Assembly (NCBI RefSeq): GCF_013167455.1
Contig: NZ_CP038328.1
Length of the DNA stretch: 64,000 bases
Reading direction: 5' to 3' (one strand)
Origin: Escherichia coli O157:H7
GTDB lineage: Bacteria > Pseudomonadota > Gammaproteobacteria > Enterobacterales > Enterobacteriaceae
Below the pieces are notes generated by a model. It had not been told where the DNA came from. It saw only the letters and a program-made list of their open reading frames with translations, and made no database searches. The stretch's first letter is position 1; every line of letters starts with the position of its first letter. The position numbers and the translations under genes were made by a program. Positions 31,829 through 34,166 of this stretch are shown in pieces.

Positions 31829-32794
31829 TTATTTTTCTGCACTACGCAGGGATATTTCACCGCCCATCCAGGGTTTTATTATTCCATCCTGCTCAAGCAA
31901 TAAAGCGCCTTGTTTGTCTATTCCGCGTGAAATGCCAAATATTTCTTTATCACCAATGATAAGTTTCACTGGGCGATTAATAAAATTATCCAGCTTTTCC
32001 CAGCGCGAAAGATAAGGTGCCAATCCTTCTTGTTCGAAGAGTTCCAGCGCCGCGCGTAATTCACGTATTAGCATGGCCGCCAACGTATTACGATCGAGAT
32101 TGATCCCCGCTTCCTGCAGCGTGATCCACCCCTGATTAACGACACTCTCTTCAACACGACGCATTGCCATGTTGATCCCGGCTCCAATGACTATTTGCGC
32201 CGCATCGCCGGTTTTGCCAGTCAGCTCCACAAGAATGCCTGCCAGCTTGCGATCCTGCAGATAGAGGTCATTAGGCCATTTGACACGAACTTTATCTGCT
32301 CCCAGCTTGCGTAATACTTCCGCCATCACGATACCGATAACCAGACTTAAACCAATCGCCGCCGCCGGGCCTTGTTCCAGACGCCAGAACATCGACAAAT
32401 ATAAGTTTGCGCCAAAAGGCGAAAACCATTTCCGACCCCGGCGACCACGGCCAGCCTGCTGGTATTCTGCAACGCAGGCATCGCCCGATTTAAGCTCTCC
32501 GATACGATCAAGAAGGTACTGATTCGTGGAGTCAATCACTGGCAGCACAGTTACACTACCGCCATCCAGCTGACCCAATATCTGTTCAGCATTAAGTAAC
32601 TGGATAGGCTCAGGCAGGCTGTATCCTTTACCCGGAACGGTAAAGACATCAACGCCCCAGTCACGCAGTGTCTGAATGTGTTTATTAATAGCCGCCCGGC
32701 TCATTCCTAACGTTTCACCCAACTGCTCACCTGAGTGAAATTCGCCATTCGCTAACAGCGCGATTAATTTCAGTGGCACGGTGTTATCCTTCAT
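31829..32794 (-). CDS. birA: biotin-protein ligase / bio operon repressor, 321 aa
   Basis: ORF track; N-terminal HTH, GRGRRGR biotin-binding loop. Confidence 0.95.
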
Positions 32795-33819
32795 GAAATT
32801 GTCTCCACTGCGCTCACTTCACCTGATGCACCAATAAAGCGGACTTCAGGCTCAAGCCAGACATTAAATTTTTCACCCACTTTTTGTCTTACATGGTGTG
32901 CCAGTTGCACCACATCTTCGCTTTTTGCATTGTCTTCATTAATGAGAACTAACGCCTGTTGACGGTGCACCGCAACCCCACCCATTTGCATCCCTTTTAG
33001 CTGGCACTGATCGATAAGCCAACCTGCTGCCAGTTTTACTGAACCATCCGCCTGGGGGTAATTTGGTGCTGTTGGAAATTGTGACAGTAATGCTTTAGCC
33101 GTTTCGGCAGATACAACAGGGTTTTTGAAGAAACTACCGGCATTGCCATTCACTTTTGGATCAGGGAGTTTGGTGGTGCGCATATGACACACCGCATCAA
33201 ATACTTGCTGTGGCGTTACTGTTGTAGGATCCAGACGAGTTAAGTCACCATACGTTAGTACAGGTTGCCACTCTTTTGGCAGACGCAGACCTACGGCTAC
33301 AATGGCGAAGCGGTCCTGGTATTCATGTTTAAAAATACTGTCGCGATAGCCAAAACGGCACTCTTTGGCAGTTAAGCGCACTTGCTTGCCTGTCGCCAGT
33401 TCAACACAATCAACATAAGCGCAAACTCGCTGTAATTCTACGCCATAAGCACCAATATTCTGGATAGGTGATGAGCCGACACAACCAGGAATTAATGCCA
33501 GATTTTCCAGACCAGGCATACCTTCCTGCAAAGTGTATTTTACCAGGCGATGCCAGTTTTCTCCGGCTCCTACATGTAAATACCACGCATCAGGTTCATC
33601 ATGAATTTCGATACCTTTGATCCGGTTGATGATCACCGTGCCGCGATAGTCTTCCAGAAAAAGTACATTACTTCCTTCACCCAGAATAAGAACGGGTTGC
33701 CCTTCTGCGGTTGCATGCTGCCAGGCATTGAGTAGTTGTTGTTCGTCTTCGGCACATACAATGTGCTGAGCATTATGATCAATGCCAAATGTGTTCCAGG
33801 GTTTTAAGGAGTGGTTCAT
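32791..33819 (-). CDS. murB: UDP-N-acetylenolpyruvoylglucosamine reductase, 342 aa
   Basis: ORF track; FAD-binding MurB; 4-nt overlap with birA. Confidence 0.95.
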
Positions 33820-33910
33820 AGCTGCTTTCCTGATGCAAAAACGAGGCTAGTTTACCGTATCTGTGGGGGGATGGCTTGTAGTTATGACGACAGGGAGAGT
33901 TTGTAGAAAC

Positions 33911-33942
33911 GCAAAAAGGCCCAGTCTTCCGACCGGGCCTTC
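33911..33942 (-). terminator. rrn operon terminator (single hairpin) downstream of the 5S rRNA
   Basis: Minus-strand AGGCCCGGTCGGAAGACTGGGCCT hairpin followed by TTTTTGCGTTTC. Confidence 0.6.
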
Positions 33943-33953
33943 TGCTTAATTTG

Positions 33954-34073
33954 ATGCCTGGCAGTTCCCTACTCTCGCATGGGGAGACCCCACACTACCA
34001 TCGGCGCTACGGCGTTTCACTTCTGAGTTCGGCATGGGGTCAGGTGGGACCACCGCGCTAAGGCCGCCAGGCA
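33954..34073 (-). rRNA. rrfB: 5S ribosomal RNA, 120 nt
   Basis: Reverse complement matches E. coli 5S (TGCCTGGCGGCC...GGGAACTGCCAGGCAT) with one variant base near the 5' end. Confidence 0.95.
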
Positions 34074-34166
34074 AATTCTGTTTTATCAGACCGCTTCTGC
34101 GTTCTGATTTAATCTGTATCAGGCCGAAAATCTTCTCTCATCCGCCAAAACACCTTCGGCGTTGTA

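Follow-up and report, generated by a model that had tools for sequence, protein, structure and literature searches.

The window analysed here is a stretch of 64,000 nucleotides from Escherichia coli O157:H7, and it is 100% identical to O157:H7 chromosomes. On its minus strand, the last gene of the rrnB ribosomal RNA operon is followed by murB. The features of this junction are given below in minus-strand order.

33954..34073, minus strand: 5S rRNA gene, last gene of the rrnB operon (Rfam, sequence reading and alignment to K-12 rrfB)
33940..33953, minus strand: 14-nt leader CAAATTAAGCAGAA between the 5S 3' end and the hairpin
33918..33939, minus strand: predicted terminator hairpin GGCCCGGTC-GGAA-GACTGGGCC, with a 9-bp stem and a GGAA tetraloop
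33907..33917, minus strand: U-run TTTTTGCGTTT, directly 3' of the stem, read from the sequence
33848..33860, minus strand: conserved block ATACGGTAAACTA, nearly invariant in 33 junctions from more than 15 genera while its surroundings drift
33820..33841, minus strand: murB 5' leader TTTTTGCATCAGGAAAGCAGCT, with a putative Shine-Dalgarno AGGA at 33831-33828 (role assigned from position)
32791..33819, minus strand: murB, UDP-N-acetylmuramate dehydrogenase (open reading frame list, NCBIfam equivalog)

The 23S rRNA gene of the same operon occupies the minus strand down to 34166, and the 5S gene matched Rfam family RF00001 at 33956-34071 (minus strand, 93.2 bits). The mature 5S 3' end (…CTGCCAGGCAT), placed by sequence reading and by alignment to K-12 rrfB, lies at 33954, and CTGCCAGGCAT is present only once between 33700 and 34100. 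The open reading frame at 33819-32791 was identified as MurB by the NCBIfam equivalog NF000755 (E = 4e-163). The interval between the two genes, 33953-33820, is 134 bp long and holds one hairpin with its U-run. A preliminary description of this DNA had reported a 134-bp interval with a single terminator, and its coordinates proved exact, with the 5S end at 33954 and the start of the MurB reading frame at 33819. On the transcribed strand the order is CAAATTAAGCAGAA, then GGCCCGGTC GGAA GACTGGGCC, then TTTTTGCGTTT; the murB ATG lies 95 bp further on. The stem is made up of seven G-C pairs, one A-U pair and one G·U pair, and the 3' half of the leader is an A-rich extension that pairs with the U-run. 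Within the 5S gene, two adjacent bases differ from K-12 rrfB at 34061-34062 on the minus strand (GGCCTTAGC in the window vs GGCAGTAGC in K-12), presumably reflecting ordinary 5S allelic heterogeneity.

The preliminary description had placed the rrn operon and the murB-birA unit in convergent orientation. This was mistaken: murB is encoded on the same strand as rrnB, and birA follows murB on that strand in the RefSeq annotation of a 100%-identical O157:H7 record. The two units are co-directional and stand in tandem. Because murB-birA lies downstream on the rrnB strand, read-through from the rrn operon would enter murB in the sense direction. In enterics, murB-birA-coaA has been inserted between the rrnB and tufB operons, whose linkage is ancient (PMC6735719).

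Conserved sequence was also found nearer to murB. The segment TTTTGCATCAGGA-AGC is conserved just before the murB ATG in 33 aligned junctions, and we infer that this leader holds the ribosome-binding site. The block ATACGGTAAACTA is likely to be a candidate -10 region of a murB promoter (TAAACT, 33854-33849) or another conserved regulatory site. A consensus promoter scan of 33600-34100 did not call a murB candidate -10.

To place the single hairpin in context, we compared the junction with that of E. coli K-12, whose rrnB terminator region, with the hairpins T1 and T2, was reportedly described by Brosius et al. in 1981. In the K-12 reference sequence, MG1655 (NC_000913.3), the rrfB-murB interval is 300 bp and contains T1 and T2, separated by a spacer and then a 13-nt repeat of the 5S end. 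The preliminary description had given K-12 an interval of about 300 bp with T1, T2 and a partial 5S repeat, and MG1655 carries all three. In the alignment of the window to the K-12 terminator region, K-12 lacked the 134-bp single-hairpin arrangement, and a block of 166 bp was present in K-12 only (positions 258-423 of the K-12 locus, L001). The window leader is identical to that of T2 at 14/14 positions and to that of T1 at 10/14. The hairpin shows the reverse preference, with 19/22 positions identical to T1 and 13/22 to T2, and the tail again follows T2 (22/22, compared with 11/22 for T1). The earlier impression of a T1-like stem with a T2-like downstream sequence was thus well founded for hairpin and tail.

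The extended 51-nt element was predicted to fold at -26.1 kcal/mol (z = -5.5), a stability that no sequence out of 200 shuffles reached. Over the whole element, T1 was more stable (-32.6 kcal/mol), having a longer A/U extension, and T2 less so (-22.7 kcal/mol). In the hairpin core the order changed, with -18.1 kcal/mol for the window, -15.8 for K-12 T1 and -14.7 for K-12 T2. The element has the GC-rich RNA hairpin of an intrinsic terminator. Its U-rich tract, UUUUUGCGUUU, begins at the base right after the stem and is the same tract as in K-12 T2. The hairpin also sits at the end of a transcription unit, beginning 14 nt past the 5S 3' end on the rrn strand. Across the 33 aligned single-terminator junctions, 28 distinct stem-loops were found, all of them with a GC stem, a tetraloop and a U-run and with fold energies from -22 to -30.5 kcal/mol; the TTTTTGCGTTT U-run is nearly invariant among these junctions, which come from many genera. 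Such conservation of structure over varying sequence is good comparative evidence for a working terminator. By its sequence features the window element belongs to the intrinsic (Rho-independent) terminator class, and efficient termination in vivo is predicted.

The consensus promoter/terminator scan of 33600-34100 called nothing at all. As a control the same scanner was applied to K-12, where it found T1 and missed T2, a hairpin that does terminate in vitro (PMC3993855), and the empty result was rejected as an argument against a terminator. Both the window hairpin and K-12 T2 are missed because the A-rich leader pairs with the T-run, so that the stem grows longer and the tail retains too few T residues. 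When the 134 bp and the K-12 cassette were scanned permissively against Rfam, no match approached the gathering score, and the sub-threshold matches fell on terminator ends in models of unrelated sRNAs (MicC, STnc40 and BTnc231); these scans place no known RNA family in either sequence. The spacer of the K-12 cassette (L001 344-387) gave an RtT-like match that is probably noise, scoring 17 bits (E = 0.72) where the gathering score is 45.

With murB-birA co-directional and only 134 bp away, a single terminator might be deliberately less insulating than T1 and T2 together, so that growth-rate-dependent read-through would feed murB-birA. Expression of murB and birA would then differ between strains with and without the cassette. 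K-12 T2, which has the same U-run as the window, terminates in vitro at about 50% (PMC3993855), in contrast to T1, which alone lowers expression of a downstream reporter about 28-fold in vivo (PMC3333854). Neighbouring operons of the ancient rrnB-tufB block are also transcriptionally concatenated in Salmonella (PMC6735719). However, that concatenation was demonstrated for tufB-secE and other pairs and not for rrnB-murB (PMC6735719), the hairpin core of the window is stronger than either K-12 core, and murB retains its own conserved promoter-like block. We consider tuned leakiness of this kind improbable.

The frequency of the two arrangements was assessed in 5,424 complete E. coli genomes, using a query of which at least 80% can be covered by the long form alone. 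The K-12 tandem was present at the murB junction in 2,516 of the 5,424 (46%). The single hairpin of the window type accounted for about 42%, with about 2,285 records at 90-95% identity. A second short allele, 132 bp long and carrying the T2 hairpin, made up about 10% (about 500-600 records, at least 99% identical over the shared part). An evenly spaced sample of 60 rows contained 28 long forms, 24 short forms of the window type, 6 short T2 forms and 2 plasmid fragments, and the window-type class in this sample includes O157:H7, O55:H7, Nissle 1917 and UTI89. Intervals of 133-134 bp with the hairpin GGCCCAGTC-G(G/A)AA-GACTGGGCC were seen in UTI89, Nissle, C9 and CE10. The O157 hairpin is one base apart from this form, with a G that gives the G·U pair. 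We take UTI89 and Nissle to belong to phylogroup B2, CE10 to F, and O157:H7 and O55:H7 to E; K-12 is presumably of phylogroup A, and an O111:H8 strain, which carries the long form, presumably of B1.

The preliminary description had regarded the difference from K-12 as likely natural variation, which agrees with these counts: K-12 differs by a 166-bp T1-containing block, and the short form occurs in ~2,900 closed genomes. Our literature search found no paper describing strain polymorphism at the rrnB terminator, a polymorphism that is visible in thousands of public genomes. A further variant was seen in ECZP248, where the rrnB-murB interval is a 274-bp derivative of the long form with 26 bp lost within the cassette. 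The loss spans most of the partial 5S repeat and lies between two short GGCA repeats.

A collapsed assembly was also considered as a source of the short form, given that the 166-bp block is flanked by repeats and adjoins a multi-copy rrn operon. This explanation was rejected, and we give it practically no weight. About 2,900 genomes that were closed independently have the short form, as do other species, and the window hairpin differs from the sequence that collapse of a K-12-like junction would produce.

The preliminary description had gone further and proposed that recombination between the repeated 5S-end segments removed the intervening DNA. On this account the O157 lineage would have started from a K-12-like T1-T2 junction and lost 166 bp. 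The repeats exist in K-12 as an 18-nt identical stretch, AACTGCCAGGCATCAAAT, and the two forms differ in length by 166 bp, exactly one repeat period. Deletions of this kind do occur at the locus. Strain SCZE5 has a 132-bp interval with K-12's T2 hairpin and flanks 100% identical to K-12, and the 132-bp allele of this type is precisely what the tandem should yield on crossing over at its 18-nt repeats. The window does not have this product: such a deletion would leave the T2 hairpin GGCCATCCTGACGGATGGCC in 132 bp, whereas the window has GGCCCGGTCGGAAGACTGGGCC in 134 bp. A simple single crossover between T1 and T2 of a K-12-like sequence was likewise rejected on account of the T2-T1-T2 mosaic of leader, hairpin and tail. 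The window allele type is, moreover, shared by B2, F and E strains and by sister species and so predates the O157 lineage, and nearly all outgroups have a single terminator. The proposed crossover is therefore real at this locus in other strains and did not give rise to the window hairpin; we judge a repeat deletion in the O157 lineage to be very unlikely. Nor did the idea of a strain-level loss survive, with the window allele in about 42% of complete E. coli genomes and the same hairpin type in sister species.

To examine related species, we scanned one genome per species with a degenerate DNA pattern for the MurB N-terminus. The scan gave 71 enterobacterial loci, a set in which E. fergusonii and E. 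marmotae were not recovered. The 5S end upstream of murB was resolved in 43 of the 71, and it was single in 40 of these 43. The single 5S ends of the 40 outgroup species lay 112-262 bp from murB, many of them at 132-134 bp. Two 5S ends about 168 bp apart, as in the cassette, were found only in Kluyvera genomosp. 3, Klebsiella indica and one Enterobacter.

Within Escherichia, E. whittamii has a 134-bp interval with a single type-I hairpin, GGCTCAGTC-GAAA-GACTGAGCC. In E. albertii the hairpin nearest murB is GGCCCGGTC-GAAA-GACCGGGCC (GGCCCGGTCGAAAGACCGGGCC); the contig stops 6 nt before the 5S end and so shows the hairpin type and not whether the form is short or long. Escherichia sp. E1V33 and E. 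coli E69 have 132-bp intervals with a type-II hairpin. The hairpin type of the window was also found in UTI89, Nissle, CE10, E. albertii, E. whittamii and Kosakonia oryzendophytica. At the single position a type-I hairpin is rare outside Escherichia, and other genera mostly have type-II.

Some junctions showed other combinations. Kosakonia oryzendophytica, of another genus, has a type-I hairpin with a T2-like tail as in UTI89, and in Enterobacter sp. BIGb0383 a T1 with its own tail is the sole terminator before murB. Terminator modules seem to have been reshuffled recurrently across the Enterobacteriaceae. Two contigs, labelled Chryseobacterium sp. 18061 and Flavobacterium psychrophilum (a metagenome-assembled genome), carried typical enterobacterial 5S-terminator-murB junctions, probably through contamination or mis-binning in public assemblies.

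The K-12 cassette is not confined to rrnB. In K-12 the same arrangement of T1, spacer, 13-nt 5S repeat and T2-type hairpin also follows rrfA and, in rrnD, rrfF. At the end of K-12 rrnG and rrnE there is just one hairpin, and rrnC and rrnH finish in tRNAs that have other terminators. Among about 5,400 genomes, the cassette was found at rrnA in 1,167 (21.5%) and at rrnD in 3,237 (60%), compared with 46% at rrnB, so that each locus able to carry it is polymorphic. Within K-12 the rrnA and rrnB cassettes are identical at 208/209 positions, and either matches rrnD at 197-198/209. The near identity of rrnA and rrnB is the expected signature of conversion between operons.

The other rrn operons of O157 were examined as well. 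Strain 133 of O157, whose rrnB matches the window at 100% identity, carries the cassette at rrnD, and its rrnE ends in one T2-type hairpin. A lone hairpin, also T2-type, was seen at rrnA of O157:H7 OK1. With single hairpins at rrnA and rrnE and the cassette only at rrnD, a single terminator is the rule in the O157 genome. At rrnE of strain 133 (L017 13200-13492) the 5S gene leads straight toward yjaB, without yjaA. The T2-type hairpin there matches that of O157 rrnA exactly and differs from the terminator of K-12 rrnE. The B2 strains in the sample (Nissle, UTI89 and others) matched the query for the long form at just one place per genome. This suggests that B2 strains are without the cassette at all rrn operons.

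The mosaic composition of the window element raises the question of where its T1-like hairpin came from. One account starts from an Escherichia ancestor that had the cassette at rrnB, in which an unequal exchange, or a short tract of conversion, ending in the shared shoulder GGGCCTTT joined the T1 hairpin to the T2 tail, with vertical inheritance thereafter. The K-12 tandem would then be either the surviving pre-deletion allele or a re-acquisition. The identities of hairpin (19/22 to T1) and tail (22/22 to T2) are consistent with such a chimera, as is the resemblance of the UTI89 and E. albertii leaders (AGCGAAAGGC) to T1 leaders of other genera. The cassette is old, being present at the junction in Kluyvera, Klebsiella indica and an Enterobacter, and recombinants exist, with T1 alone in Enterobacter sp. 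BIGb0383 and the same chimera in Kosakonia oryzendophytica. That other genera mostly have a type-II hairpin at the single position also points in this direction. However, the window leader is of the T2 type at 14/14 positions, so the T2-T1-T2 pattern needs two switches. Across loci, leader variants and hairpin types are not linked; variants of this leader follow the 5S gene in other rrn operons and in other species. No intermediate was seen in the junctions compared. We regard such an ancient chimera as possible but doubtful. It concerns origin only, and its functional prediction is the same as that of our preferred reading. An ancient exchange between T1 and T2 could nevertheless be the ultimate source of the T1-like hairpin, which would be the mechanism of the preliminary description in a much older form.

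Our preferred reading, which we hold with considerable confidence, is that these 134 bp represent the ordinary 3' end of rrnB in its single-terminator form, an intrinsic terminator and an old allele, and that the K-12 cassette is secondary. RNA polymerase would complete the 5S gene, transcribe the 14-nt leader and then form the 9-bp GC-rich hairpin with its GGAA tetraloop, followed by UUUUUGCGUUU. The rrn transcript would be released about 95 bp ahead of the co-directional murB-birA, and the remaining sequence would supply murB-birA with its own promoter-like block, which is conserved, and a ribosome-binding site. Since about 42% of E. coli carry the window type, E. whittamii and E. albertii have hairpins of this kind and 40 of the 43 resolved outgroups are single, the single terminator is most likely the older state. 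On grounds of parsimony, the K-12 tandem at this junction is probably derived. The single form would have been inherited as an old allele across phylogroups E, B2 and F, in a design common to sister Escherichia and to most Enterobacteriaceae. Recombination or gene conversion involving another rrn operon most likely brought the cassette into rrnB in the A/B1 lineages. Rare outside Escherichia at the single position, the T1-like hairpin may itself derive from a T1 copy.

These results bear on how the rrnB terminator is commonly pictured. Fewer than half of complete E. coli genomes, about 46%, have the T1-T2 tandem of textbooks and cloning vectors at this junction. In O157:H7, in uropathogenic E. 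coli and in most Enterobacteriaceae, a lone hairpin must end rrn transcription upstream of murB-birA. If the two forms differ in leakiness, expression of murB and birA could differ by lineage. As a long shot, the 166-bp cassette might be a portable terminator module, moved among rrn operons by recombination, whose presence or absence at rrnB has a measurable effect on the sense transcription that a very strong promoter sends into murB-birA; phylogroups would then differ systematically in how MurB (cell wall) and BirA (biotin regulation) are coupled to ribosome synthesis.

Compared with K-12 rrnB, the window has the same locus and flanks, and the last 95 bp before murB differ by two substitutions. 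The window has one hairpin where K-12 has two, and it is without the 166-bp block (T1 tail, spacer and 13-nt 5S repeat). At the T2 position the window stem is a 9-bp T1-like helix, whereas that of K-12 has 8 bp (GGCCATCC/GGATGGCC). Of the features of the K-12-type tandem, the window shares the T2 tail and the murB flank and lacks both the pair of hairpins and the 166-bp cassette. Without these two defining features, the window element lies outside the K-12 tandem arrangement.

K-12 rrnG and the rrnA and rrnE operons of O157 offer a closer parallel in overall design, with the 5S end, a leader of ~14 nt, a GC hairpin with a tetraloop and TTTTTGC. They differ from the window in having the type-II hairpin GGCCATCCTGACGGATGGCC and other downstream flanks. 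The junctions of E. whittamii, E. albertii, UTI89, Nissle and CE10 share with the window the position, the tail and the hairpin family GGC(C/T)C(A/G)GTC-G(A/G)AA-GAC(T/C)G(G/A)GCC. These Escherichia junctions differ by point changes only: the variable pair is G·U in O157, A-U in UTI89 and CE10 and G-C in E. albertii, which may be read as a stepwise compensatory series.
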